A stretch of 64,000 bases of DNA from a virus, in IMG/VR virus record IMGVR_UViG_2881147464_000001, positions 9,453-73,452 of that record; one strand, given 5' to 3'. Shown here one piece after another: positions 4,415 through 60,341 of this stretch; the stretch's first letter is position 1, and every line of letters begins with the position of its first letter. A program made the translations under genes and the position numbers. Under the pieces are notes generated by a model, which was not told the DNA's origin, made no database searches, and saw only the letters and a program-made list of their open reading frames with translations.

Positions 4415-4881
4415 TTCCACGCCCACCCGAGTTCGGACGCCGTGTTCCTCAAGATGTCGGCGAGCATCGGGGGGATTCCGTACTTCTTGACCGAATAGGA
4501 GAGGTTCATGGGCTCGCCGCCGTCACGCTCGACATTGGCGGCGCGCCAGTCACAGAACATCTCGACAAGACTCATCAGCGTCATGCCGGCCATGCCTCTG
4601 CCGATGTGCGCCTCAGGATGGTGATCGTTGTTCGCGTAGTGATGCGTGATCATGTCGCCGAGCATGGCGGTGCGCCGGCGCGCCTCGTCGGAGCCATAGG
4701 GCGCCGGACCTTCCTTCTCGATCAGAGTCAGCAGCGCATCTAGCGGCCCCTTTTCGGTCGGCGTGAACTTCGACGCGTCGTGCACCTCGGCCCGGGCATC
4801 CATCAGATCGCAAAACTGATGGATAGACGCCCGGACCAGGGCGATGTGGTTGAGGATGCTTTCCGTCGAGTCGACCATCAC
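4411..4881 (-). CDS. DUF5662-like / HD-related phage protein
   Basis: HDASKF, HHYANNDHHPE, LVEMFCDW motifs. Confidence 0.65.
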   Translation of the reverse strand: MMVDSTESILNHIALVRASIHQFCDLMDARAEVHDASKFTPTEKGPLDALLTLIEKEGPAPYGSDEARRRTAMLGDMITHHYANNDHHPEAHIGRGMAGMTLMSLVEMFCDWRAANVERDGGEPMNLSYSVKKYGIPPMLADILRNTASELGWAWK

Positions 4882-5999
4882 CCGACTCTCATCGGCATGA
4901 GGACATAGACCGACGCCGGATCCTTGTCAGTCGTGATGACTGTCGGACTACCCGGATCGATCAGGCTGATGCGGGCATCGCCGGTGCCGATCACCGTCAT
5001 GATGTCGCTCAGATACTTGGCGTTGAAGCCGATCTCGAGCGGTTCGCCGCCATACTGGACGTCGACATCCTCTTCGGCCGACCCATTGTCGGGGCTGTTG
5101 ACGGTCAAGCTCAGATGCTCGTCGGTAAAGGTCAGTTTGACCGCGCGGCCGCGCTCGGACGAAACCGTCGTGACGCGATCGGCCGCCGCCGACAGAATCT
5201 TGGAGGCGACGATAGCGATGCGATTGCCGATGGCGGGTATGACGCGTTTGTAGTCCGGAAAGGTGCCATCGATCAGTTTCGATACAAGCACCGTGGTGCC
5301 GACCGTCACACGGATCTTGTTCTCGCTCACCTCGACCTTGATCGGATCGGTGCCGGCGACCTTGGCCAGGGTGATGATCTCACTGATTGTCTTGCGCGGA
5401 ACGATGATGGGCGGAAACCCGTCGACGTCGCCATCTGGCTGTCGGTATGACGTCGCCAGGCGATGGCCGTCGGTGGCCACAAAGGTGATGGCATCCGGCT
5501 GGGCGTCATCCACGTTCCAGAAGACGCCGTTGAGATAATATCGCGTCTCCTCGGTCGAGATGGCGAATTGGACCTTGGAGAGCGCCTCGAGCAGCGCGTC
5601 GCCGGCGAACTGGATGGTGTGGGAATAGTTGCCGTCGGTCATCTGCGGATAGTCGCTATCCGGCAGCGTCTGCAGTCGGAACTTCGACCGGCCGGCACCG
5701 ACGCTGGCGACCTGGCCATCCGGCTCGCTCTCGAACATCACCTCGGAGCCGGGTGCCATCTTGCGCAGGATGTCGCTCAGCAGCTGTGCCGGCACACTCG
5801 TCGCACCCGGTCGCGCCACGGCGGCGCCGAGCGCCATCGTGATCTCGAGGTCGAGATCGGTGGCGCGCAGTTCGATACCGTCCTGCTTTGCCGAAACCAC
5901 AGCGTTCGATAGGATTGGAATGCTATTGCGGCGCTCGCATATTTTTTGGACGGCGGCCATAGCCGCGGCGAAGGCTTTTGCGTCGGCGACAAACTTCAT
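4878..5999 (-). CDS. dnaN: DNA polymerase III beta sliding clamp (copy 1)
   Basis: 373 aa; IPILSN, ATDLDLEI, AISTEETRYYLNG, VATDGHRL, LIDGTFPDY, IGFNAKY, VLMPMRV. Confidence 0.95.
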   Translation of the reverse strand: MKFVADAKAFAAAMAAVQKICERRNSIPILSNAVVSAKQDGIELRATDLDLEITMALGAAVARPGATSVPAQLLSDILRKMAPGSEVMFESEPDGQVASVGAGRSKFRLQTLPDSDYPQMTDGNYSHTIQFAGDALLEALSKVQFAISTEETRYYLNGVFWNVDDAQPDAITFVATDGHRLATSYRQPDGDVDGFPPIIVPRKTISEIITLAKVAGTDPIKVEVSENKIRVTVGTTVLVSKLIDGTFPDYKRVIPAIGNRIAIVASKILSAAADRVTTVSSERGRAVKLTFTDEHLSLTVNSPDNGSAEEDVDVQYGGEPLEIGFNAKYLSDIMTVIGTGDARISLIDPGSPTVITTDKDPASVYVLMPMRVG

Positions 6000-8621: not shown

Positions 8622-9559
8622 GCCGCTAAATCCTGTTCGATCATTGCGATCCGCCGCTCTGCCTGCTCGCGTGACCATTTGGTACGGCGGATGAACCCAC
8701 CATCCCCTTGTAGATTCTTCGGTCCTGGCCAGTAGCCAGTATCCAAGGCGCGTTTGAACAAGCGCAACGCAGCATGGTTCTCGGCGTGGCCTGCCGCGAT
8801 CTCGTTCGGGTCCACTGCGTCGATGCGGACGCAATTAGGGCGTTTCTGCTCGACATAGACGAGAAAGAAATTTTCCAGCGGACGGCCGAAAACCATCTGC
8901 ATAGCTTCATTTACCAACCCTGCTTGTTGGTGATAGCCGCGCTCGCCTAAGGCTCTCGAAATGCCATCGTCCGAGACATCTGATACGCATTTTAAGTCGG
9001 CCGCATCGTTGTCGTTCGGAACGGCATCAGGTCGACTCTTCAGCCAGATCCCGGTTTCAGGATCCTGCCAGAACAACGAAAGCTCGACCATGCCATTGAG
9101 GATACCGCCGCGGATCGGCGGCTCGGCGGCAAGCGTCTTCGACATGCCCTTGATGTATTCGAGTTGTTCTGGCTTGAGGACGGTCAGACCCTCAATCTCT
9201 CTTTCGGCGAGCCACCTCTTGCACGAGAGGTTGTTGCCGTTCCATGCGCGCCCGTCCGGTGCCTCTTCCGGCCGCAGGACGAAGAACTTGTTGAAATCCG
9301 CTTCGCCGAGGAGGAGATGGTGGGCAGCGCGGCCAAGGATCATTGCCTCGCTGTCTTTGGTCTCTTCGCGGTCGGGATTGAGCGGCGATGTATCCCAATA
9401 GTGCGCCAGACTCTGGTTGAAGATCGTGCGCAGCCCGCTGGAACTGATTGATGGTCCTTCGGTCGGCTGGCCGTGATAAACCGACATCGGCATGTTTGCG
9501 TAGGCACCCGGCTCTGTGATCTTGGTGCCCGGGATATATTCGCGGATGAGGCCGGTCAT
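8618..9559 (-). CDS. RecE/exonuclease VIII-like PD-(D/E)XK nuclease
   Basis: SISSSGL, ILGRAAH, KSRPD, ADLKC, YHQQA. Confidence 0.85.
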   Translation of the reverse strand: MTGLIREYIPGTKITEPGAYANMPMSVYHGQPTEGPSISSSGLRTIFNQSLAHYWDTSPLNPDREETKDSEAMILGRAAHHLLLGEADFNKFFVLRPEEAPDGRAWNGNNLSCKRWLAEREIEGLTVLKPEQLEYIKGMSKTLAAEPPIRGGILNGMVELSLFWQDPETGIWLKSRPDAVPNDNDAADLKCVSDVSDDGISRALGERGYHQQAGLVNEAMQMVFGRPLENFFLVYVEQKRPNCVRIDAVDPNEIAAGHAENHAALRLFKRALDTGYWPGPKNLQGDGGFIRRTKWSREQAERRIAMIEQDLAA

Positions 9560-15595: not shown

Positions 15596-16033
15596 ATGTT
15601 CGGAAATCTCTTCAAAGGGAAAGCCAAGGAAGCCATCAACCAGTTCTCCGGCAACAAGGACTTTCTCGAGGGCATGTGCGCCGCCTGCGCGCTGACGGCC
15701 GCCGCCGAGGGCGGCATCGACGACGCCGAGTACGAGAAGACGCTCACGGTCATCCGGTCGAACTCGGCGATCTCCAAAGGCTTCGGCTCGACCGAGATCG
15801 AGTCGGTCTTCGCGCGCATGCAGGGCAAGACCACGACGCGCTCCGGCAAGGCGGAACTGAAGAACGAGATCCGCGAGGTGATCGCCAGGGACCGGACCGG
15901 CTCGCTCGGCCAGGCCATCGTGCTCGCCAGTCTGGACGTCGCCGACGAAGGCGGCATCTCAGCGGCGGAAACGGCGGTCATGCGCGACATCGCGTCGATC
16001 TGCAACGTCAACTACGACAAGCTCGCCGCCTGA
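15596..16033 (+). CDS. terB: TerB-family (tellurite resistance-like) protein
   Basis: ACALTAAAEGGIDDAE...VADEGGISAAETAVMRDIA. Confidence 0.85.
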   Translation: MFGNLFKGKAKEAINQFSGNKDFLEGMCAACALTAAAEGGIDDAEYEKTLTVIRSNSAISKGFGSTEIESVFARMQGKTTTRSGKAELKNEIREVIARDRTGSLGQAIVLASLDVADEGGISAAETAVMRDIASICNVNYDKLAA

Positions 16034-16073
16034 TCTGATCGGCGCCGATCTCAATCACCGAAGGGAGATTTGA

Positions 16074-16952
16074 GTGATCAAGAGACTTTTGATTGCCGTG
16101 GCGATCGCCACACTGCTACCCGCCGCGGCCATGGCTGACATTCGGCTATGCACCGGCTCCTCGAGCGGCAACTACTTCGCCGCAGGACAGGAGATCGCCA
16201 AGATGGCCGGCAAGAATCTGCCCGTCTCGGTGGTCGAGACCGAAGGCACCATCGACAACCTGCAGCGTCTCATCGACCAGCCGGCCGATTCGCCGACGGC
16301 GTGCGACGCGATGATCGGCCAACCTGACGGACCGGTCTATATCGGACGGCAGTCGCCGGCGAAGGTGAAGAAACTGCGCCAGGTCGGCGGTCTTCATCGC
16401 GAGTATCTTCACGTTCTGTGCTCCAAGGCGTCAGGCGTCGACGATCTCGGCGACATTGCCGATGGTGGGCACTCGCTGGCAATCGGCGAGCCCGGTTCCG
16501 GCGCCTGGCTGATATGGCAAAACATCATCGCCGAAGACGACAGCTACGCGAAGGTTCCCGTCACCAATGAAGGCGGCATCATCGCACTTTCTGCCGTGGC
16601 CTCCGATGTGACCACATGCATGCTTGTGCCGTCCGGTCTGAAGAACGGCACCGTCATGGAGGCGGACAGCAATTTCGGCGACAGTGTCGTCCTGGCTGAC
16701 GCCAATGACAAGGATTTCAACGACGCGACGGACATCACCGGCAAGCCGCTCTATACCTACGTGGACATCCCGTCTGGCACCTATCCGAATTCGCTCCAAA
16801 CCGGACTCTTCGGCAGTTCCGTCTCGACGATCTCGTGGCTGGCCGGCGTCTATGTGAACACCGATCGCTTCACGGACCAGAAGCAACTGGCGGCATTCAT
16901 TCAGGCGGTTGCCCGCGCTTCCGCCGGCATCAAGGCGGAATACGGCCAATGA
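16074..16952 (+). CDS. TAXI-family TRAP-type solute-binding protein homologue
   Basis: Signal peptide; LCTGSSSGNYFAAG, ETEGTIDNL, LHREYLHVL, IGEPGSGA. Confidence 0.8.
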   Translation: MIKRLLIAVAIATLLPAAAMADIRLCTGSSSGNYFAAGQEIAKMAGKNLPVSVVETEGTIDNLQRLIDQPADSPTACDAMIGQPDGPVYIGRQSPAKVKKLRQVGGLHREYLHVLCSKASGVDDLGDIADGGHSLAIGEPGSGAWLIWQNIIAEDDSYAKVPVTNEGGIIALSAVASDVTTCMLVPSGLKNGTVMEADSNFGDSVVLADANDKDFNDATDITGKPLYTYVDIPSGTYPNSLQTGLFGSSVSTISWLAGVYVNTDRFTDQKQLAAFIQAVARASAGIKAEYGQ

Positions 16953-17209: not shown

Positions 17210-17512
17210 GTGATGATGAAGGCAGGTCTATTTTTGGCAGCGTTCCTCGCGCTGTCTCCGGCGCATGCGGAAGAGTCAAAGTGCTCGAAATGGGGCGCGC
17301 TGAAACAAGCTCTCGCGGACAAGTTCCATGAGGTGCAGATTGCGGCCGCGCTCATCAACGACCATGCGATGATGGCGGTGTTCGCGTCGCCTGGCGGTGA
17401 GACCTGGACCACGGTGGCGGTGGGCGTCGATGGAACCGCATGCGTACTGACCGTCGGAACTGGCTGGGCCGTTATCGCGCCGCCGGGCGACCACAGCGGA
17501 GCGCCGACGTGA
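17210..17512 (+). CDS. small secreted protein
   Basis: Signal peptide; two Cys; common alphaproteobacterial phage type (FASPGGETWT...ACV). Confidence 0.65.
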   Translation: MMMKAGLFLAAFLALSPAHAEESKCSKWGALKQALADKFHEVQIAAALINDHAMMAVFASPGGETWTTVAVGVDGTACVLTVGTGWAVIAPPGDHSGAPT

Positions 17513-17541: not shown

Positions 17542-17676
17542 ATGAGCGCATCCGTTGCGCTGGCTGCCTTCTTTGGCGCCGTCTTCGTCGTCCTGCTCAT
17601 CACATTGAGATCTGGCGGAAATCGTCACGCGCCGATCGAGATGGGAACTGAACTCTCAACAATAACTCAAGGCTGA
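17542..17676 (+). CDS. small single-TM protein
   Basis: MSASVALAAFFGAVFVVLLITLR. Confidence 0.5.
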   Translation: MSASVALAAFFGAVFVVLLITLRSGGNRHAPIEMGTELSTITQG

Positions 17677-17689
17677 AAAGGGGACGTGC

Positions 17690-18241
17690 ATGCTAAACAA
17701 TCTTTTGCTCTATCGGATCGCAGTGTTCAACGCATGCATCGTCGCCGGCCTGATCTGGGGTTTCATGCAGGGTCGCGTCCAGGTTCTCTTCGCGCACGAG
17801 ACTACCGGAATCGGATATGGGATGGTGGTCGTTTTCGTCATCGCGATGATTGGCTTCATCCAGCGGGTGCGGAAGACATCGGCGGCGCTGAACGATGTGA
17901 AAGCGGGCAGGTGGGTCGACATCCGCAAATTCAAGGTCAAGGGATCGTTCGTGCCTGCGGTCTCGGTATGGCTTGTCACGCTCGGTCTGATTGGTAACAT
18001 TGCGGGCTTTTCTCAGGCCGTTGAGGCGCTGAACCTATCGGGTGGCGGTGACGCCGCGCTCAATGCCATCGGGCAGATGATCGCCGGCATGAAGGTCGCG
18101 TTTTACACGACCATGATCGGAACAAGTCTCGGCCTCTGGCTTGGCGTCAACGGCCACATCCTTCGCGTCGCGACGGCGCTCTTGCAGATCGATGCCGAGG
18201 CCCTGCGGCCGCGCTCGTTCCCGCAGGTTATCGCGCCATGA
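17690..18241 (+). CDS. MotA/TolQ/ExbB proton-channel family protein
   Basis: TM signatures LGLIGNIAG and GMKVAFYTTMIG. Confidence 0.8.
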   Translation: MLNNLLLYRIAVFNACIVAGLIWGFMQGRVQVLFAHETTGIGYGMVVVFVIAMIGFIQRVRKTSAALNDVKAGRWVDIRKFKVKGSFVPAVSVWLVTLGLIGNIAGFSQAVEALNLSGGGDAALNAIGQMIAGMKVAFYTTMIGTSLGLWLGVNGHILRVATALLQIDAEALRPRSFPQVIAP

Positions 18242-18894
18242 TCGAGGCCGAGATCGACTACGACAGCGAGATCAACAGCGTCGCCTACCGTGATGTCTTG
18301 CTGAACACGATTCTTGGACTGGCGATGATCATAGGGATCGTTGCCATCCTGATCACCGTCAAGAACAAGATGGAGAAGGAGGCATCTGAACCTCCGGGCA
18401 ACATGATCGTCCATATCCTGTGGCCTCAAGGGGACACAGATGTCGATCTCTGGGTCGACGGACCCGGCGAGCCGGTTCCGGTCGGGTACAGCAACAAGGG
18501 CGGCCTTCTCTGGAACCTTCTTCGTGACGATCTCGGCGCTCAGCCGGACGCAACGGACATCAACTACGAGGACGCCTTCACCCGCGGCATAGTCGGCGGC
18601 GACTATACGGTCAACGTGATGTGCTACCGCTGCCCGCAACTGCCGCAGGACGTCAAGGTCGTCGTCGAACTCAATACCGGCGAGCCGGGCAAGACCGAGA
18701 TGAAGCCGCTCGTCAACACGACGGTCAAGCTTGTGACCGATGGGCAGGAGCGCACGGCGATCCGGTTCAAGCTGGACGAGTCGACCAAGGACATCGTTCC
18801 GGGATCCAAGAACTCGGTATTCAAGCCGCTGCGCTCGGCGACGAAGTCCGAGACGCCGCACGGAAGTTCCGTAACCCCTCCTTACGAGCACTGA
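18238..18894 (+). CDS. ExbD/MotB-like single-TM partner with YfaP/DUF2135-like periplasmic domain
   Basis: TM starts with YRDVLL (conserved Asp position); W..GDTDVDLWV.GP motif. Confidence 0.6.
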   Translation: MIEAEIDYDSEINSVAYRDVLLNTILGLAMIIGIVAILITVKNKMEKEASEPPGNMIVHILWPQGDTDVDLWVDGPGEPVPVGYSNKGGLLWNLLRDDLGAQPDATDINYEDAFTRGIVGGDYTVNVMCYRCPQLPQDVKVVVELNTGEPGKTEMKPLVNTTVKLVTDGQERTAIRFKLDESTKDIVPGSKNSVFKPLRSATKSETPHGSSVTPPYEH

Positions 18895-18901
18895 GGCTGC
18901 C

Positions 18902-19498
18902 ATGAGCTATCCTGTAACCGTCTGGCTGGTGATCACCGTCATCCTCGGCCTTGTCGCCACTTTCGCCATCTGGGCCCGCGGCTTCTCGCGCGCCCGCGGC
19001 CTAGCTGTCCTCGCCTTTTTGTTGGCGAGCCCAATCGCGGCCGCGTCACTCGGCTTCAGCCTTGGCTGGCCGGTTCCCTTGGTCGACGGCCTTACGCTAT
19101 CCGCCGGCGAGCACGCCATACTCGGCGCCAAGATCACGATCGGCGATGGCATCTATGTCCTGATCGATCGTGGAGAAGAGCAGCCGCGGTACTTCAAGAT
19201 CCCATGGGATCCGAAGATGGCCGACAAACTACAGCAGGCGCTGGATGAGAAGGGCGAGGGCGGCGAGGCTGGCATCACCGTCGATCAGTTCAGGTGGCCA
19301 TGGGAGAAGAAGGGCAAGAATGGCGGCGGCCAGGGCGGTGAGAAGCGGGCGCAGGAAGGCAATCCTTCGGTCGAGATGAATCCGTTCGAATGGTCGTGGG
19401 ATACGCATGAGAAGCGCTTCTGGGCCAAACCGCAGCCCAAGGTACTGCCCGACAAGCGATCACCGCCGCCGGCACCAACCTACGAGCAGCAGATCTGA
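18902..19498 (+). CDS. 2-TM membrane protein with Pro-rich C-terminus
   Basis: N-terminal TMs; KPQPKVLPDKRSPPPAP tail. Confidence 0.65.
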   Translation: MSYPVTVWLVITVILGLVATFAIWARGFSRARGLAVLAFLLASPIAAASLGFSLGWPVPLVDGLTLSAGEHAILGAKITIGDGIYVLIDRGEEQPRYFKIPWDPKMADKLQQALDEKGEGGEAGITVDQFRWPWEKKGKNGGGQGGEKRAQEGNPSVEMNPFEWSWDTHEKRFWAKPQPKVLPDKRSPPPAPTYEQQI

Positions 19499-19897: not shown

Positions 19898-20611
19898 GTG
19901 AGCGCCATCGATTTCGCCAAGATGACAAAAGAGTTCGCCTCCATCCGCCCAGCCGGCGGCTTCAAGGCAGCGCTGATCGACTTCCCATGGGACTTCGAGC
20001 ACTTCTCGGAGAAGGGGCAGGGCAAGGGCCCGCAGCGCCATTACAACACGATGACGATCGAGGAGATCTGTCAGGTGCCGTTGACGGCATTGCTGGCGGA
20101 CGACGCTGCCGTCTTCCTCTGGATGACCTGGCCATTGGCGATGCGCTGGCGCGAGGTTGTCGACGCGCTCGGACTCACCTTCGCTGGCCTTGCTTGGGAA
20201 TGGATCAAGTTCAATCCGAAATCCGGCAAATACGCCTTCGGAGGCGGGTATGGCACGAGAAAAAATCTCGAACCATGCATACTTTGCACCCGTGGCGGCC
20301 CGCAGCTTCGCCAGCCCATCATGAGCGATATGCTCGGCGAGGCGGTGATCCCGTCCGGCGTCCGCAGCGTGCGCGACTTCATCGAGGCGATGCCGCTCGA
20401 CGCCATACGCGCGCCACGCCGCATCCACAGCCAGAAGCCGGACGAACAATACGATCGCATCGAAACGTTGTTCGATGGCCCCTATGTCGAGCTTTTCAGC
20501 AGGAGCTCGAGGAAGAACTGGACGGCCTGGGGTGACCAGGTCGGCCTGCTCGATGCCGGACTCCCGGCGCAACCGCCGCAGGACGCGGCACATCTGAAGG
20601 AAGAAGCATGA
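19898..20611 (+). CDS. MT-A70-family adenine methyltransferase
   Basis: LIDFPWDF, YNTMTIEEI, VFLWMT, HSQKPDE, VELFSR...WGDQ. Confidence 0.9.
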   Translation: MSAIDFAKMTKEFASIRPAGGFKAALIDFPWDFEHFSEKGQGKGPQRHYNTMTIEEICQVPLTALLADDAAVFLWMTWPLAMRWREVVDALGLTFAGLAWEWIKFNPKSGKYAFGGGYGTRKNLEPCILCTRGGPQLRQPIMSDMLGEAVIPSGVRSVRDFIEAMPLDAIRAPRRIHSQKPDEQYDRIETLFDGPYVELFSRSSRKNWTAWGDQVGLLDAGLPAQPPQDAAHLKEEA

Positions 20612-20880
20612 CGACCAAGACAGAACTGGCCGCTCGAGTCGCAGCCGCGACAGGCCTAACGAAAGCGGACTCCGCCGCAGCGGTGAACTCCCTGATCGAC
20701 GCGATCGCCGACACTCTGATTTCCGGCGAAAAGGTGCAACTCGCCGGCCTTGGCATCTTCAACGTGAAGGCGACTGCGGCGCGTCAGGGGCGCAATCCCC
20801 ACACCGGCGCCACTGTGGCAATCGCCGCCGGGCGAAAGGTCACGTTCAAGATGGCCGCTGATCTGAAGGGGAGGATGTGA
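20608..20880 (+). CDS. hup: HU-family DNA-binding protein
   Basis: KTELAARVA...GEKVQLAGLGIF...ARQGRNPHTG...FK. Confidence 0.92.
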   Translation: MTTKTELAARVAAATGLTKADSAAAVNSLIDAIADTLISGEKVQLAGLGIFNVKATAARQGRNPHTGATVAIAAGRKVTFKMAADLKGRM

Positions 20881-21509
20881 CTTTGGGACGTCCAGCCGGA
20901 TCCAAGAATAAACCCAAACTATCCGTCGTCGGCGGCGTCGCCGGACCGGGCCACAATCGCTCGCAGGAGCAACTCACGGATGACCAACTCCAAGGGTTGA
21001 CCAGACAGCATGCGCAGAAGCGCAAGTCGCTGGTCGACGCCGAGAAGAAGGCCAAGGCCGCCAGGATGAACTTCGACAAGGTCATCAAGTCGGATCTTGG
21101 CGCCACCGGCCTTGCCAATATCAAGCTGCTCGAGGAACTGGAAACGCCGGAAGGCGAGGCCAGGATCAAGGCCGACATGGAGCGCCAGGCGATGGTCGCG
21201 CGCTGGGCCGGCCTCGCGATCGGTACGCAAGGCTCGCTGTTCGACGCCGACCGACGGCCGATCGAGGATCGCGCCTTCGATGACGGCAAGCGCGACGGCA
21301 TGTCGGGCAAGACGCTGCAACCGCCGCATGCGCCGGACACGGTTGCCTACGGGCGCTATGTCGAGGGGTGGCACGCTGGTCAGGCAATCAACGCGACCGG
21401 CATCAAGCAGAAGCCGCCAGAAGCAGAACTGCTGCGCAAGGAAGGGGCCGAGGTCTCCGGCAAGCCGGATGAGTTCGACGAGGCGGCGGGCGGCGCCGCG
21501 GCGGAGTGA
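20877..21509 (+). CDS. AT-hook + GapR-like + Rmf-like domain protein
   Basis: GRPAGSKNK; GHN motif; RAFDDGKRDGMSGK...YVEGWHAGQ. Confidence 0.55.
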   Translation: MTLGRPAGSKNKPKLSVVGGVAGPGHNRSQEQLTDDQLQGLTRQHAQKRKSLVDAEKKAKAARMNFDKVIKSDLGATGLANIKLLEELETPEGEARIKADMERQAMVARWAGLAIGTQGSLFDADRRPIEDRAFDDGKRDGMSGKTLQPPHAPDTVAYGRYVEGWHAGQAINATGIKQKPPEAELLRKEGAEVSGKPDEFDEAAGGAAAE

Positions 21510-21562
21510 GATCATAGGGGGCAGGCAACTGCCCGCTTTCCCAAGATGAAGAGCATTGCGAC

Positions 21563-22252
21563 ATGATTCTCGGTGGGCTCGATATAGCCACAACGACAGG
21601 CGCTGCCGTCCTCAAGGACGGCATCTTCACCGCCGAGACATTCGTCTTCAGCGGCGCGAAGAAGAAAAAGAGCATCCTTGATGATCTTGAGGAAAAGAAG
21701 GCACTGGACGCGGTCGAACTGGGGAAAGTGTTCGACTGGTTCGAGCGCGTTGTGCGCGTCTGGATCCTCACCCATGGCATCCAAAAGGTTGCGATCGAGG
21801 AACCGCTGCGCACCGACTTCAGCGGCCGGAAGAAGGCGGTTGTCGATGCCGGATCCAACTGGGCCGGCAAGTCGGTCACCTACGAGAAGAAGGGCGGTAT
21901 CAGCCTCAAGACGATCTTTAAGCTTCATGGCCTCGAGGCGGTTGCCTGCCGGGTGTGCGCCCAACTGAACATCCCGGCAGTCTTCGTCAATCAGGCGACA
22001 TGGAGGGCGGCCTTTCTGGGGCATGGGCGGCCGCCGGATGCCAAGTCGGAAGCGGTGAAGATGTGCCGCAAGCTGGGCATTGAAATCTCCAGCGTGGATT
22101 CGGCGGAGGCGGTTGGCGTGTGCTGGTGGCTCGATCGGACGCTCAATCCGTACAGCCATCGCCGGGCCAACGATCTCTTTGCCGATAAGCCGCCGACCAA
22201 TGCGCAGCGTCAGATCCAGGAGGCCGAGAAACTGTTCAAGGCTGCCACCTGA
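21563..22252 (+). CDS. RuvC-like Holliday junction resolvase
   Basis: GLDIATTTGAA, VAIEEP, ATWRAAFLG, DSAEAVGV. Confidence 0.75.
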   Translation: MILGGLDIATTTGAAVLKDGIFTAETFVFSGAKKKKSILDDLEEKKALDAVELGKVFDWFERVVRVWILTHGIQKVAIEEPLRTDFSGRKKAVVDAGSNWAGKSVTYEKKGGISLKTIFKLHGLEAVACRVCAQLNIPAVFVNQATWRAAFLGHGRPPDAKSEAVKMCRKLGIEISSVDSAEAVGVCWWLDRTLNPYSHRRANDLFADKPPTNAQRQIQEAEKLFKAAT

Positions 22253-22806
22253 TGTGGAATCGGATGACAAGAGAGGAGCGGATAGAGGCGATCCGCGACG
22301 GCGTCGGCTGCAACATGAGCAGCACGGAGATTGCGGCTGAAATAGGAGGGTGCACAAGGAACGCCGTCATCGGACTGGCTTACCGGGCCCATGTGGCATT
22401 GGCATCTCCACGACCGAAGGTGGAAAAGAAACAGGCGTCGGCGAGGCCAAAGTCGTCAAAGACCGGGTCGATGAAGAGGGTGGTAAAACCGACGAAGACA
22501 TCGCCTCCGGTGCCGTTGAAAAAGAAACAAGAGCCAGCCTTCGTCGATGCCGAGCCCATCTACGAATTCCCGGACAGCCATTACGAAGTGCATCTGGAAG
22601 AGGTCAAGAGCGGGCAATGCCGGCGGCCGCTGTGGAATGACGACAAGCGGCCGGGACTGGAAGCATACTTCTACTGCGGCAAGCCGGTGAAGGCCGGATC
22701 ATCGTATTGCTGGCATTGCCACAAGAAGATGTATGACGGCCTGCCGGTGCCGCGGGAGAGGAAAAGGTCAAGCGCGAGACTGTCCTGGCGCGGTGAGTTT
22801 GCTTGA
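22252..22806 (+). CDS. gcrA: GcrA-family cell-cycle regulator
   Basis: SSTEIAAEIGGCTRNAVIG; C-terminal CRRPLW...YCG...YCWHC. Confidence 0.88.
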   Translation: MWNRMTREERIEAIRDGVGCNMSSTEIAAEIGGCTRNAVIGLAYRAHVALASPRPKVEKKQASARPKSSKTGSMKRVVKPTKTSPPVPLKKKQEPAFVDAEPIYEFPDSHYEVHLEEVKSGQCRRPLWNDDKRPGLEAYFYCGKPVKAGSSYCWHCHKKMYDGLPVPRERKRSSARLSWRGEFA

Positions 22807-38949: not shown

Positions 38950-40296
38950 TCAGACGCGCATCGGCATGAGAACGCCAAGCCAGCCCTTGCGGTCCGGGGT
39001 GGTGATGACCGTCGGCGAGCCGGCATCGGCCATGGTGAGCGTGATGTCCTCGCCGCCGGCCGTGGCGATGAAATCCTGTATGTACTTCGCGTTGAATCCG
39101 ATCTCGATCATGTCGCCGGCATAGTCGGTTGCGACATCGGCATTCGCTGAGCCTTGATCCGGATTGTTGACAGCGAGGCGGCAATTGCCCCTATCGAAGG
39201 TGCATTTGACCGCGCGGCCCCTGTCGCTGGAAATGAGTTCGACGGCGCGCACGGCTTCCGCCAGGTCGGCGGACTTGAAGGATGCCGGCTTGTCGTTCTG
39301 TGTCGGGATGACGCGCTGATAGTCGGGGAATGTGCCGTCCACCAGCTTCGTCGTGACGGTGACATCATCGAACATGAGGCGAAGCATCTTGTCGGACAGT
39401 TCGATGCGAACGCTTGCCGGGCACGCCTTGCCCTTGAGCAGCTTCTGCAGGAGCGCGACAGTCTTCCGGGGTATGATGACGCCGGGCATCCCTGCCATGC
39501 CCTCCGTTGCCGCCAAATCCTGCCGGCAGAGCCTATGCCCATCGGTCGCGACCATGCGCAATGCGCCGTGATCGCCATGATAGGCGTCGATGGCGCGCGG
39601 CTCGACATGGTGCAGATAGACGCCGTTGAGATAGTAGCGGGTTTCCTCCGTCGAAATGGCCATGGCCACGCCGCCGAAGGATTCGACCAGATCGGCGCCG
39701 GGGACCGTGAAGGAATGCGACGGGTTGCCGCCCGACAGGTTCGGATAGTCAGCGACCGGCAAATCCTGAAGTCGATAGTTGACCTTTTCGAAATCGACCG
39801 TGACCGCGTTGCTGTCGCCGTGCGCAGCGGTGAAGCCGACGAATTCGGAAGCCGTCGCCTTCTTCACCAGGTCTTTCATCGTATGCGCCGGCAGCGTGAC
39901 GGCAAAGTGCGCATCGGCGGCGGCTGGAATCTTGACCGCGATTTCGATATCCAGATCGGTGCCGGTGACAGTCAGGTTGCTGCCGTCGCCCACCAGGCAG
40001 ACATTGGACAGGATCGGAATCGAGTTCCGCTTTTCGATCACGTTGGCGACGATTTCGAGCGCGCGGGTGAGCGCAGCTCGGTCGGCGAGTGCGGTTGCTG
40101 GCCCGACTGGCGCTTCCGGTTCGGCCTTGACCAGTTCATCGCGGCCGCTGGCGGCCTCATTGGCGGCGATCACTTCCGGCTCATGCGATGGCTCGACATT
40201 GAGCGCCTTGGCGGCCGCATAGTCGCTGAAGGACACGACCGCGCCAAGCGCAATCGCCGAAACACTGGAATTCGCAAAATTGGTATGAGCGTTCAT
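38950..40296 (-). CDS. dnaN: DNA polymerase III beta sliding clamp (copy 2) with about 70-aa N-terminal extension
   Basis: IPILSN, TGTDLDIEI, AISTEETRYYLNG, ATDGHRL, LVDGTFPDY, IGFNAKY, VLMPMRV. Confidence 0.93.
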   Translation of the reverse strand: MNAHTNFANSSVSAIALGAVVSFSDYAAAKALNVEPSHEPEVIAANEAASGRDELVKAEPEAPVGPATALADRAALTRALEIVANVIEKRNSIPILSNVCLVGDGSNLTVTGTDLDIEIAVKIPAAADAHFAVTLPAHTMKDLVKKATASEFVGFTAAHGDSNAVTVDFEKVNYRLQDLPVADYPNLSGGNPSHSFTVPGADLVESFGGVAMAISTEETRYYLNGVYLHHVEPRAIDAYHGDHGALRMVATDGHRLCRQDLAATEGMAGMPGVIIPRKTVALLQKLLKGKACPASVRIELSDKMLRLMFDDVTVTTKLVDGTFPDYQRVIPTQNDKPASFKSADLAEAVRAVELISSDRGRAVKCTFDRGNCRLAVNNPDQGSANADVATDYAGDMIEIGFNAKYIQDFIATAGGEDITLTMADAGSPTVITTPDRKGWLGVLMPMRV

Positions 40297-41192: not shown

Positions 41193-41618
41193 TTAATGCG
41201 GAAGCGGCAAGTCGAAGATGACGACCAGCGCCAGGACGCCAGCCATAAGAGCGACGAGCGCGAGGAAGCCAAGGAATTCCCGTGCGCGGCTCATGTGATG
41301 AGGTGGCCGAAGTCCACCGCTATCTCCAGTCGGCTGGTATGGCTCGCCCTTGACCTCAACTGGCTGTCTCTCGATAGGGGTGGGCATCCAACGCGCGCTG
41401 CGTTCACGTTCCGCCTCAACCTGCCGCATCAGGCTGACAACCTCGCGCTGTCGTTCTTCTGCCAGATCGTGTTGCCTCTCGGCCAGAGCCAACAACAGTT
41501 TTATTTCCTTGATGGCCAACAAAGCCGTATTTGCGCGCACATACATGCCCTCGTCCTCCAGTTTTTTGTGGAGGATTTCGAGCCGCTTCAATACCTCGTC
41601 GGTAGAGGGGGCGCTCAT
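41193..41618 (-). CDS. coiled-coil protein with C-terminal TM
   Basis: ATGA overlap; C-terminal hydrophobic stretch. Confidence 0.6.
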   Translation of the reverse strand: MSAPSTDEVLKRLEILHKKLEDEGMYVRANTALLAIKEIKLLLALAERQHDLAEERQREVVSLMRQVEAERERSARWMPTPIERQPVEVKGEPYQPTGDSGGLRPPHHMSRAREFLGFLALVALMAGVLALVVIFDLPLPH

Positions 41619-43876
41619 GACTTGCGCTCGATGAAATAGCGGCCTTCTTCGCGATTCAGCGTCACGGTTTCGTCCGGCTCGCATGTTGACGGCGGGCCGA
41701 TGTGAATTTCGCCCTCGGCTACCTTGTCGGCCGCCGTCGAGCCGCGCGGGTCGCCATAGTAGCGTCCAGCAGCCTCGAGGCTTTCGAAATGGCTTGTGCC
41801 GATGCGGTAGCCGCCGGCGGGCGCAGTCGATACCGGTGTGGCTTCCTTTGCCAGTTCATCGCCGACAAGCACGACCAGGACAGTTGCGGTTCCGGTGCCG
41901 CTTTGCTTGAACGATCCGGGCGGCAGATCGTACTTTTCGCCGCCGCAGTCATCGAACCAGGTGCGGAACTCCGTCGCCTTTCGATCCTGCCTGAAGAATG
42001 GACCGGGCGACATGACAGCGACCAGCCGGCCGCCATCGCGAAGCATCTTGAAGGCGTGGCGCACATGGTCGATATCCTGCCCGTTCTCAAAGGGCGGGTT
42101 CATCAGCACGCGGTCGAAGCGCGGCGCGGTTTCGGCTTCCATGAAATCGGATCCGGCGAGCGCATAACCCTTGGCTGTCAAGATCTCGCGCAAGCTGAAA
42201 TGCCGCTCATAGGTGGTGAGCTTTGCGCCGGGTGCCGTATCCTTCACCACATCGAGGATTGCGCCGCTGCCGCCTTCCGGCTCCAGCATGTCGAATTCAC
42301 CGGCTGGCAGATCGGCAAGATCAATCATTTGATCGATCACGGCGCGCGGCGTCGGGAAGTAGCCGGGGATATTGGCGAATTGCAGCGCCTGGACCTTGCG
42401 GCGCAAAGCCTCGGCTTGCTTGTCTGCCTCGCTCTGGCCGGCGATCATCGCCCAAAGCGCGCGCGTTGCCGGCGTGTCGGTCGCCGGCTTGCCGGTGTCG
42501 TAACCGGCGTCATAATAGCCGCCGTTGCGCACGATTTCGGACCGCGCCAGATCGTGCGCGGCTTTCTTCGATGTGACGCCGCGCAGCTCGGGCGGCACGG
42601 TGCCGGCGTTATGGTGCGCCGCCAGGGCGCGCAGCGCCTGTTGCGTGCGCTGTAGCCAATAGCCGTCAAGGCGCGCGCTATCGGCTTCACGCTGGCGCTT
42701 AGGCGTGTTTGTCAGCCGGTCGCGGAATTTATGGTCGATCTCGCCTTGCATAGCGTCGGCCATGGCGCGCAGCTTGTCGCCGGTTGCGACACTGGCACGC
42801 GCCGGCGCCTCGGCGCGCGGTGCGGCTTCCGGCGCGCGTCCATCCTTCGGCCCGTCATCGTTCGGCGACGGCTCCGGATTGGCGAACGTCTCGGCGGCAT
42901 CGCGTTTCTTGAAGGCGAAGCCGCCCGGCGTCTTTCCCCATGGCTTGGAGTACCAGCCGCCGAGAGTCTCGGCCAGTTCGCGAAGCCGGTTGAATTCGTC
43001 GCGCTCGACGCGCTCGGGCATGATGCAGATGAACATCTGAAAGCCCTTTTTCGTGTGGGTGTGTTCCTCGATCCGAATCCCGGCCGGCGTCACAACGCCA
43101 GGCGCGGCCGCTGGCGCGGTTTCCGCCTTCGGTGCGGCCAAGTGCCAATCGGCAGGGAAAGGCAGGCTCTTGACCGGCTCACGGTTGCCATAGAACGATT
43201 GTTTCGAGACTTTCCAGCCGTTCGAGTAGCGGCCGCCGACCTTCAGGAAGTAGCCGCCGCCCATGCTCCATTTCTGCCGATTCTCGGCAGTTTCCGGCGC
43301 GTCGGCCAATGCGGCAGTCTCGGCGAAGTTGCGCGCCGCCTGCCGAAGCTCGGGGAACAGATCGCGGGTATGCTTGGAAAAGCCGAGAATGACGGTTCTA
43401 ACCGTCTTGCCGCCGTAATAGTCAGTCATCGAGTCCGATTGATCCTCGATCAACTCGGCGACGATGACAGCTTTCGCCCATGCCGGAATCTTGCTGGCCG
43501 CGTCGGCTTCAAAGGCAGCGCGCGCAATCCGGCCTTGCTCATAGGCTTCGTTCATCTGGCGTGCGGCGTCGGCTTTCTTCGCCTTCGCCGCCGCCAGCAA
43601 TGCCGCCGCCTGTTCGGCTGAAATCGGCTCGATACGGTAGCGCGCCGCAAGGTCCAGCCATGACCGCGCGGCGGATTCGGGAACCTCCGTTATCTGAAGG
43701 CTTTCGCCCCAAACGATGGTTAGCTGCGACCGGTCGCGCACCATGCCGCTGGCACCAATGGTAAAGCCGTTGCAGGCCTCGACCTGGACGACATGGCCGG
43801 AACTTGAATAGGCGGGATGATAGGCCGGCGCGCCAATGGCGACGGAATCCGGGCGGATAGCGGTTTCAATGTTCAT
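41615..43876 (-). CDS. large multidomain protein with C-terminal class I SAM (N6-adenine-type) DNA methyltransferase
   Basis: YFPTP, LEPEGGSGAI, VLMNPPF; start MNIETA after GGAG SD and hairpin. Confidence 0.85.
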   Translation of the reverse strand: MNIETAIRPDSVAIGAPAYHPAYSSSGHVVQVEACNGFTIGASGMVRDRSQLTIVWGESLQITEVPESAARSWLDLAARYRIEPISAEQAAALLAAAKAKKADAARQMNEAYEQGRIARAAFEADAASKIPAWAKAVIVAELIEDQSDSMTDYYGGKTVRTVILGFSKHTRDLFPELRQAARNFAETAALADAPETAENRQKWSMGGGYFLKVGGRYSNGWKVSKQSFYGNREPVKSLPFPADWHLAAPKAETAPAAAPGVVTPAGIRIEEHTHTKKGFQMFICIMPERVERDEFNRLRELAETLGGWYSKPWGKTPGGFAFKKRDAAETFANPEPSPNDDGPKDGRAPEAAPRAEAPARASVATGDKLRAMADAMQGEIDHKFRDRLTNTPKRQREADSARLDGYWLQRTQQALRALAAHHNAGTVPPELRGVTSKKAAHDLARSEIVRNGGYYDAGYDTGKPATDTPATRALWAMIAGQSEADKQAEALRRKVQALQFANIPGYFPTPRAVIDQMIDLADLPAGEFDMLEPEGGSGAILDVVKDTAPGAKLTTYERHFSLREILTAKGYALAGSDFMEAETAPRFDRVLMNPPFENGQDIDHVRHAFKMLRDGGRLVAVMSPGPFFRQDRKATEFRTWFDDCGGEKYDLPPGSFKQSGTGTATVLVVLVGDELAKEATPVSTAPAGGYRIGTSHFESLEAAGRYYGDPRGSTAADKVAEGEIHIGPPSTCEPDETVTLNREEGRYFIERKS

Positions 43877-43934
43877 TGTCTTTCGATCTCCAGTTGTTGC
43901 CACGATTGGCAAGGGTTTGAACGTTTTGCGGTCT

Positions 43935-44177
43935 TTAGTCGCGCCGGGCGCTTGTGCGCCATTCGTCGCCGTCTTCGATATAGACGGAGCCGAAATGTGA
44001 ATCTGTGAATTTTTCAGTCTTGACCGAACGCGCGCATTTGTTGAGCGCGCGGGCAATTTGGCTTGCAGCTTTCGGGCTTAGATAGACCGTCGGGCCGTCG
44101 CCGACACAAAGCGCGATGAAATCCCGGAAGCGGTGGACGCTGGCGACGATATTCGTTCTTTTGGCCTTGCCGCTCAT
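43935..44177 (-). CDS. hypothetical protein
   Basis: ATGA overlap. Confidence 0.6.
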   Translation of the reverse strand: MSGKAKRTNIVASVHRFRDFIALCVGDGPTVYLSPKAASQIARALNKCARSVKTEKFTDSHFGSVYIEDGDEWRTSARRD

Positions 44178-60189: not shown

Positions 60190-60266
60190 CGCCGCGTGGC
60201 TCAACTGGATAGAGCATCAGATTTCGACTCTGAGGGTTGTGGGTTCGAATCCTACCGCGGCGACCA
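60190..60266 (+). tRNA. tRNA-Arg (anticodon UCG)
   Basis: Acceptor CGCCGCG/CGCGGCG, anticodon arm TCAGA-TTTCGAC-TCTGA, T-loop GGTTCGAATCC, encoded CCA. Confidence 0.93.
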
Positions 60267-60267
60267 T

Positions 60268-60341
60268 TCCCGCTTCGTCTAATGGTAGGACACCGCCCTT
60301 TGAAGGCGTGAATCGTGGTTCGAGCCCATGAGCGGGAACCA
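60268..60341 (+). tRNA. tRNA-Gln (anticodon UUG)
   Basis: Acceptor TCCCGCT/AGCGGGA, loop CTTTGAA, T-loop GGTTCGAGCC, encoded CCA. Confidence 0.92.

Follow-up and report, generated by a model that had tools for sequence, protein, structure and literature searches.

A conserved three-gene membrane cassette with a minimal MotA/ExbB-type channel subunit in a provirus, in rhizobial phages and in alphaproteobacterial chromosomes

Ion-driven motors of the 5:2 type power flagella, Ton uptake, the Tol-Pal system, gliding, type IX secretion and the Zorya system, and new branches of these motors have each revealed a new energy route across the envelope. In this study, we analysed a window of 64,000 nucleotides (positions 9,453 to 73,452 of IMG/VR virus record IMGVR_UViG_2881147464_000001; window coordinates are used below), in which a sequence-only reading had described three coupled membrane open reading frames (ORFs) at 17690-19498. 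The ORFs, their motifs and an ATGA overlap between the first two were as described there, and both the gene families and their adjacency exceed chance. The three genes, here called A, B and C (Table 1), form a conserved cassette found in phages and in bacterial chromosomes; A is a member of the MotA/ExbB/TolQ/ZorA superfamily, and B carries a conserved Asp in its only transmembrane (TM) helix. It is most likely, with a probability that we put at roughly 0.65, that A, B and C build a self-contained inner-membrane machine of the MotA/ExbB-MotB/ExbD type, which would draw its energy from the proton-motive force (PMF) and have a periplasmic output.

A literature search on phage-borne ExbB/TolQ-like trios, DUF2135 and YfaP found no relevant work. 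A recent survey of MotAB homologues describes many uncharacterised generic ion transporters and, in the passages searched, does not name the trio (PMC12505986). Likewise, a recent survey of periplasmic force transducers reports new transducer families and makes no mention of the trio in the passages searched (PMC12204202).

The TM layouts of all three proteins were predicted from hydropathy. Protein A has four TM segments (about residues 4-28, 37-61, 83-108 and 133-158), three of which are strong and the fourth (133-158) amphipathic, and its single cytoplasmic loop is basic and ~27 residues long (59-85). A is a subunit of MotA topology that is essentially devoid of a cytoplasmic domain. Two motifs characterize the last two helices, LGLIGNIAG at residues 98-106 and GMKVAFYTTMIG at 133-144, and both are well conserved among 146 non-identical relatives: G99, G102 and G106 are kept in 142-145 of them, position 103 is occupied by Thr in 123 and by Asn in 20 (a GxxG(T/N) channel motif), T141 is kept in 141 and G144 in 140.

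Several searches placed A in the superfamily suggested by these motifs. The Pfam MotA_ExbB family (PF01618) was matched by 13 of 19 close relatives of A (E <= 0.01, best 3.1e-8), PADLOC ZorA models matched A with E values down to 3e-6, and the NCBIfam model ZorA_2 matched with E 0.0011. When a profile of the A family was compared with the PDB, only ZorA, MotA, TolQ and ExbB chains were matched, the best being ZorA (8vvn, 3.7e-5). The AlphaFold2 model of A (predicted local distance difference test, pLDDT, 87) gave a similar picture, in that its best Foldseek list consisted almost wholly of ZorA, ExbB, PomA, TolQ and MotA (TMq 0.58 for TolQ and 0.53 for ZorA). In the VIA re-examination of these matches the top 15 were all ExbB, ZorA, TolQ or MotA, with Z of 10.0-10.8 over 146-162 residues; ExbB and TolQ align to A from about residue 27 onward, and MotA over all four helices (residues 2-183). 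Thus, A belongs to the MotA/ExbB/TolQ/ZorA superfamily by both profile and fold. A PHROG match of A to a holin (E 0.047) was judged to be noise.

Protein B is bitopic. A short cytoplasmic N-terminus precedes its sole TM segment (residues 17-45), which opens with YRDVLL (17-22), and the motif W..GDTDVDLWVDGP follows at residues 62-76. The sequence-only reading had singled out the Asp of YRDVLL as the candidate proton acceptor, and this residue, Asp19, sits at the helix's cytoplasmic end, with 148 of 150 relatives retaining it; the adjacent R18 is present in about 120 of the 150. We take Asp19 to be the equivalent of MotB D32, ExbD D25 and TolR D23, on the basis of established knowledge of these proteins. 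The periplasmic part has an invariant cluster of acidic and aromatic residues: W62, D68, D70, D97, E111 and G121 are found in every one of 152 sequences. A CxxC of the window protein is lineage-specific. The family is large, with 2473 clusters at 90% identity and 1689 representatives at 50% identity, nearly all of them 180-230 residues long.

The periplasmic domain of B was more difficult to assign. Window B had no Pfam, NCBIfam or PADLOC match at E <= 0.1, a profile of its close homologues had no sequence match in the PDB, and Foldseek searches against the PDB and against viral models returned weak generic beta-sandwich matches only. In its AlphaFold2 model (pLDDT 77), a TM helix is followed by a beta-sandwich, and the most conserved stretch of the protein, residues 86-105 with NLLRDDLG, has a pLDDT below 50, which might fit a loop whose ordering depends on a ligand or partner; this loop, with its invariant NLLRDDLG, is also the leading candidate for a site that may bind Ca2+, peptidoglycan or periplasmic glucan. 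A more diverse B profile matched only protease jelly-rolls in the PDB, best of all the C-terminal jelly-roll of Tk-SP subtilisin (3afg, E 0.03), which is also the best structural match (Z 5.7, 79 residues). In an hhalign comparison, the same profile aligned with Escherichia coli YfaP over 77 columns (E 5.3e-4, probability 31%), and PF09906 (DUF2135) was matched by 2 of 28 diverse B relatives (best E 2.6e-4); leads from the Atlas likewise point toward a jelly-roll of the DUF2135/PPC type. On the other hand, the pairwise comparison of B with YfaP did not rise above shuffled sequences (z 0.85), and a PF09906 search of 61 alphaproteobacterial genomes, one of which carries B, found no match. The domain is not OmpA-like, as had been read from the sequence, and these weak, convergent signals suggest that it is a DUF2135/PPC-type jelly-roll, an assignment that we regard as probable and unproven. 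Since a TerB gene lies upstream, a TerD-like fold was also considered (Z 5.6) and was rejected, given that its score ties with unrelated matches and that TerB is not a conserved neighbour.

Protein C begins with a hairpin of two TM segments (about residues 1-29 and 31-55) joined by an Arg-rich, predicted cytoplasmic turn, and the positive-inside rule would place its soluble part in the periplasm. Its family alignment revealed the conserved motifs LGWPVP directly after the second TM segment, a PRY..PW core, PFEWSW and a terminal PQPKVLPDK, as well as a Gly-rich insert of about 35 residues in window C. We found no relative of C in Pfam, NCBIfam, PADLOC, PHROG or the PDB: a Pfam search with 22 members gave no match beyond chance, and the profile comparison with the PDB gave only matches to reaction-centre M chains due to TM composition. 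There is no invariant His in the alignment and no TonB_C or TolA domain. C had previously been described as a 2-TM protein with a Pro-rich tail. Both features are present, 7 of its last 24 residues being Pro, but PQPKVLPDK and a conserved, predicted periplasmic domain that falls into no known family define C better than does a Pro-rich tail of a generic kind.

To describe the gene neighbourhood, we pooled 80 loci from species genomes, 80 from viral contigs and another 8 loci (among them the window itself and three from isolate phages), and counted neighbour order in the 166 loci with B. Each of the three ORFs has its own protein family. An A-like gene lies upstream of B on the same strand in 155 loci, a C-like gene downstream on the same strand in 141, and all three genes are present in 133; gaps in phage trios are often homing-endonuclease insertions. 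When all neighbours in the 166 loci were clustered, no further conserved partner emerged, after antisense shadow ORFs that arose from greedy ORF calling in G+C-rich loci (clusters 3-6) had been discarded. Thus, A-B-C is a self-contained cassette. In one library protein of 342 residues (P0217), an A-like N-terminal half (hhalign E 4e-20 to A) is fused to a full B, so that the C-terminus of A and the N-terminus of B, both cytoplasmic, are linked; either the fusion is genuine or the assembly contains a frameshift.

The trio is widespread in Alphaproteobacteria. B was detected in 52 of 61 Geminicoccaceae-family genomes, with 1-6 matches each, and in 29 of 201 evenly drawn alphaproteobacterial species (~14%), including genomes of 0.8-1.6 Mb; Azospirillum brasilense and Skermanella are among the carriers of the chromosomal operon. 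In the rhizobial family of Allomesorhizobium, 1 of 81 genomes had it. One chromosomal locus is flanked by genes for a sigma factor, MatE and ketopantoate reductase, and another by genes for prolyl oligopeptidase and enoyl-CoA hydratase. Among isolate phages, 29 carry the gene, all of which infect Rhizobium or Sinorhizobium; they include the temperate phage 16-3, RHph phages with podophage-sized genomes and 155-kb virulent T4-like phages such as P10VF. In P10VF itself, B is flanked by weak A-like and C-like genes. In the annotation of phage 16-3, the trio genes are p038, p040 and p042 and have no assigned function. The description of the trio as a phage-borne module therefore held in part: its provirus context in the window is real, but the module is not specific to phages, being near-universal in Geminicoccaceae chromosomes and present, among housekeeping genes, in ~14% of the sampled Alphaproteobacteria.

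We reconstructed the phylogeny of B with FastTree. Three groups can be distinguished in the tree: a chromosomal clade with short branches (74 genome rows together with 4 viral ones), a well-supported clade of 43 phage and prophage rows to which L088, the closest relative of the window, belongs, and many deep, long viral branches. The window's own row was absent after duplicate removal, and its place is taken from L088, to which it is 83% identical. The tree is read without a root and hence without a direction of transfer. The phage copies are old and diverse, in agreement with the expectation that they were not recently captured housekeeping genes, and recent capture of the trio from a host is excluded.

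Considering the family of A, the conserved Asp of B, the missing cytoplasmic domain and the presence of two periplasmic partners, we propose a PMF-driven motor of the 5:2 type with periplasmic output, and for its stoichiometry, rotation, docking of C and biological role we infer the following. The TM helices of two B subunits would be encircled by a ring of A, which is presumably pentameric. Relative rotation would be driven by the passage of protons, or of another ion, between the conserved Thr/Asn and the Thr of the last two A helices and Asp19 of B. With hardly any cytoplasmic domain on A, the output would have to be in the membrane or the periplasm, and could take two routes. One would be the jelly-roll of B, a candidate binder of Ca2+ and/or glycan. 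The other would be C: its hairpin might dock outside the A ring, and its periplasmic domain, together with the Pro-containing tail, might extend into the envelope in the manner of TonB and TolA. In many Alphaproteobacteria the trio would be a resident chromosomal envelope system, and rhizobial phages would bring their own copies into hosts that lack it, most likely in order to alter or maintain an envelope property during infection.

Several observations weigh against this interpretation. The window A protein scored 15.2 bits against PF01618 (E 0.018), below the cut-off of 22.9, and has Asn at position 103, where most relatives and the known motors have Thr. The structural scores of A, with Z near 10, are within reach of chance for helical bundles. 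No sequence similarity was found between B and ExbD, TolR (PF02472), MotB, MotB_plug or OmpA. The evidence for contact between A and B consists only of synteny, coupling and one fusion protein, P0217, whose 1:1 ratio misfits 5:2 and which may be an assembly artefact.

A more far-reaching version is that the trio is a minimal 5:2 ion-driven motor in which all output is periplasmic, via a Ca2+- or glycan-binding jelly-roll on B and the hairpin-anchored transducer C, and that temperate and virulent rhizobial phages alike import this motor so that the PMF of the host powers a phage-directed envelope function. We consider this version tentative and would not expect it to hold in full. If true, the trio would represent a new class of viral auxiliary energy-transduction genes.

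An alternative hypothesis was that the trio serves in Zorya-like anti-phage defence or superinfection exclusion, with A-B sensing the envelope perturbation caused by an incoming phage and blocking it, to the benefit of the lysogen or of the infecting phage. Among named relatives, A scores best with ZorA models and with a type I ZorA structure, and the trio lies among envelope-directed accessory genes of the prophage. However, A lacks the long cytoplasmic tail of ZorA (183 residues, compared with profiles of 461-699 positions), and the five proteins flanking the trio had no PADLOC match and included no ZorC, ZorD, ZorE, ZorF or ZorG effector, in line with what had been noticed for the first three. 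Moreover, B is near-universal in Geminicoccaceae, with short branches and with housekeeping flanks in the chromosomal loci examined, which is unlike the patchy pattern of defence islands, and virulent T4-like phages carry the trio too. We therefore consider this hypothesis unlikely. Superinfection exclusion, Ton/Tol interference and Zorya-like sensing had all been offered as candidate roles, and direct support was obtained for none of them.

It is also conceivable that no rotary motor exists at all, A being a static scaffold or simple ion channel and B a membrane-anchored periplasmic jelly-roll, either Ca2+/glycan-binding or protease-associated, in which the Asp is structural. This would agree with the finding that the B jelly-roll is closest, by both sequence and structure, to Ca2+-binding C-terminal domains of subtilisin-like proteases, and with a trypsin-like peptidase gene close to the trio in ~12 viral loci. 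The peptidase link is, however, seen solely in 16-3-like and RHph phages, which are related, and neither the window nor the chromosomal loci show it. In addition, an invariant TM charge together with a MotA/ExbB-type partner that keeps the channel Thr is the signature of an ion-driven motor, which is in part established knowledge. A non-motor role thus appears quite improbable.

We regard a lysis-linked device as very improbable. Here the channel would dissipate or sense the PMF to time holin triggering, or the trio would aid envelope disruption at lysis. An endolysin-like gene (phrog_181, E 2.6e-40) was identified directly 3' of C in two prophage-like loci from metagenome-assembled genomes (L008, 7081-7767; L009, 7081-7779), and the same endolysin family occurs 3-5 kb upstream of the trio in 16-3-like phages. 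Nevertheless, only 7 of 166 loci have a member of this family close to the trio, and the sole Phage_lysozyme gene of the provirus is ~76 kb from the trio, PF00182 and PF01510 searches of the provirus having found no match. The window trio sits with TerB, methyltransferase, HU and replication genes, in P10VF and RHph_N3_13 the trio lies among DNA-metabolism genes, and the chromosomal copies in small genomes speak against a lethal function.

Finally, that a host housekeeping operon was picked up recently and has no phage-specific role, as the large chromosomal clade with its housekeeping flanks might suggest, is highly improbable and largely refuted by the many deep viral branches and the separate phage/prophage clade holding L088, and by the rarity of the gene in the host family of the 29 isolate phages, whose hosts are therefore not recent donors.

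The window is part of a 108.7-kb IMG/VR provirus (CheckV completeness 93%) that sits in a 7.78-Mb contig with nearest homologues from Mesorhizobium. Phage replication and recombination genes surround the trio, and terminase, portal and capsid genes lie downstream of it. A TerB-like gene, a gene for a TAXI-type binding-protein-like product and a gene for a small secreted protein precede the trio; MT-A70 and GcrA-like genes (both by Pfam) and an HU-like gene (by similarity to HU-sized neighbours) follow it. It is reasonable to place the trio within a putative early or accessory block on the + strand. Coupling within the trio is tight: GGGGA lies 6 nt 5' of the ATG that starts A, an ATGA at 18238-18241 is shared by A and B, and C starts 7 nt after B, with GAGG 6 nt 5' of its ATG. 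In ~10 loci, of which 9 are viral, a homologue of the small secreted protein is encoded near the trio, in most cases immediately upstream of A; its gene is outside the core cassette.

Table 1. Coordinates of the trio and of a nearby gene in the window
Feature	Position	Strand	Description	Basis
Gene A	17690-18241	+	183 aa (amino acids), 4-TM, minimal MotA/ExbB/TolQ/ZorA-type channel subunit	ORF listing
Gene B	18238-18894	+	218 aa, bitopic, N-terminal TM and predicted periplasmic beta-jelly-roll (about 52-200)	ORF listing
Gene C	18902-19498	+	198 aa, 2-TM hairpin and predicted periplasmic domain	ORF listing
Asp19 codon of B	18292-18294	+	Candidate ion-accepting residue, cytoplasmic end of TM helix	Position from ORF
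Possible accessory gene	17210-17512	+	100 aa, secreted, signal-peptide-like N-terminus	phrog_25396, E 3.5e-10

Other features of the window were also recorded. At 15596-16952, the TerB-like gene (phrog_632, E 5.5e-19) is followed by the gene for the secreted protein resembling TAXI-type TRAP solute-binding proteins (phrog_6856, E 5.6e-74). At the DNA level the latter is 68% identical to genes found in Agrobacterium phage Atu_ph08 and in Sinorhizobium phage PBC5, and it is a periplasmic binding protein carried by a phage. A library protein of 228 residues (P0252) matches the TAXI-like protein over its first ~123 residues and the C-terminal half of B over the remainder; apparently it stems from a related element in which a deletion in this region would have removed A and the TM part of B. 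Between the secreted-protein gene and the trio there is a possible 44-residue single-TM ORF (17542-17676), which ends 13 nt 5' of gene A.

On the other side of the trio (19898-22806), the MT-A70 methyltransferase, HU-like and GcrA-like genes are phage copies of alphaproteobacterial cell-cycle and nucleoid factors. An HU-like gene also lies ~1.3 kb upstream of A, on the opposite strand, in several Geminicoccaceae loci (such as L031, L034, L068 and L077); the presence of HU-like genes both near the chromosomal trio and after the window trio is probably a coincidence. Further away, two sliding-clamp-like genes were identified at 4878-5999 (-) and 38950-40296 (-) (phrog_947, E 4.5e-82 and 1.3e-79, respectively), and the pair may reflect two tandem elements or a duplicated replication module. 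Adjoining genes for tRNA-Arg(TCG) and tRNA-Gln(TTG) were found inside the provirus at 60190-60341, and an 813-residue protein is encoded at 41615-44056 (-), residues 531-739 of which match the methyltransferase-like modules that occur in very large phage proteins (phrog_15406, E 2.6e-82).

As a branch of the 5:2 motors, the trio would be of interest for several reasons. Its A subunit is the smallest among those examined (about 175 residues), the periplasmic domain on the Asp-bearing protein is new, and the third protein belongs to no known family. The trio is also common, occurring in sampled alphaproteobacterial species that include those with streamlined genomes and in many unrelated rhizobial phages. 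The trio may thus be a compact subject for structural work on how motors are coupled to periplasmic outputs, and it raises the question of why phages would supply their own motor to hosts without one.

Compared with known systems, the likeness of B to the DUF2135 (YfaP)/PPC jelly-roll lies in its strand pattern, W..D.(T)D(L/V)DL.V..P.G...Y.N ... E ... G.Y.V.V..Y, and all scores between the two are weak; no pairing of a DUF2135 protein with a motor is known. GldL-GldM and PorL-PorM also combine a small A-type subunit with a single-TM partner that has periplasmic beta-sandwich domains, with an Arg beside the key TM position (R18 in B). Unlike the trio, GldL has two TM helices and GldM is long and spans the periplasm, and no sequence or fold match to these pairs emerged. 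ZorA-ZorB shares with the trio the best sequence scores of A (PADLOC, PDB and NCBIfam) and a mobile-element context. It differs in that the matches cover only the TM core of the ZorA profiles, that the trio has no ZorB-type domains and that its chromosomal distribution is core in some families.

MotA-MotB and PomA-PomB are similar to the trio in the four-TM topology of A, over the whole length of which MotA structures align. The start of the B helix, (F/Y)-R-D-hydrophobic, resembles the Y-A-D-hydrophobic of MotB, a likeness that we use as a lead only. In contrast to these stators, A has no cytoplasmic torque-generating domain, B has neither an OmpA-like peptidoglycan-binding domain nor a MotB_plug match, and the trio includes a third gene and occurs in phages. 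TolQ-TolR-TolA and ExbB-ExbD-TonB differ in other respects. A has four TM helices and ~27 cytoplasmic loop residues, as against three TM helices plus a helical domain in the cytoplasm for TolQ and ExbB; the B domain is a predicted beta-jelly-roll rather than the ExbD/TolR fold and has no PF02472 match; and C is a 2-TM hairpin without the conserved His motif or a TonB_C or TolA domain. On the other hand, the gene order is that of the Tol and Ton systems, namely a channel subunit, a partner with an Asp in its TM helix and a third membrane-anchored protein with a periplasmic part. TolQ and ExbB also match A in fold (TMq up to 0.58; Z 10.0-10.8), B has the Asp of its one TM helix at the cytoplasmic end, and, as in these systems, the output would be periplasmic.

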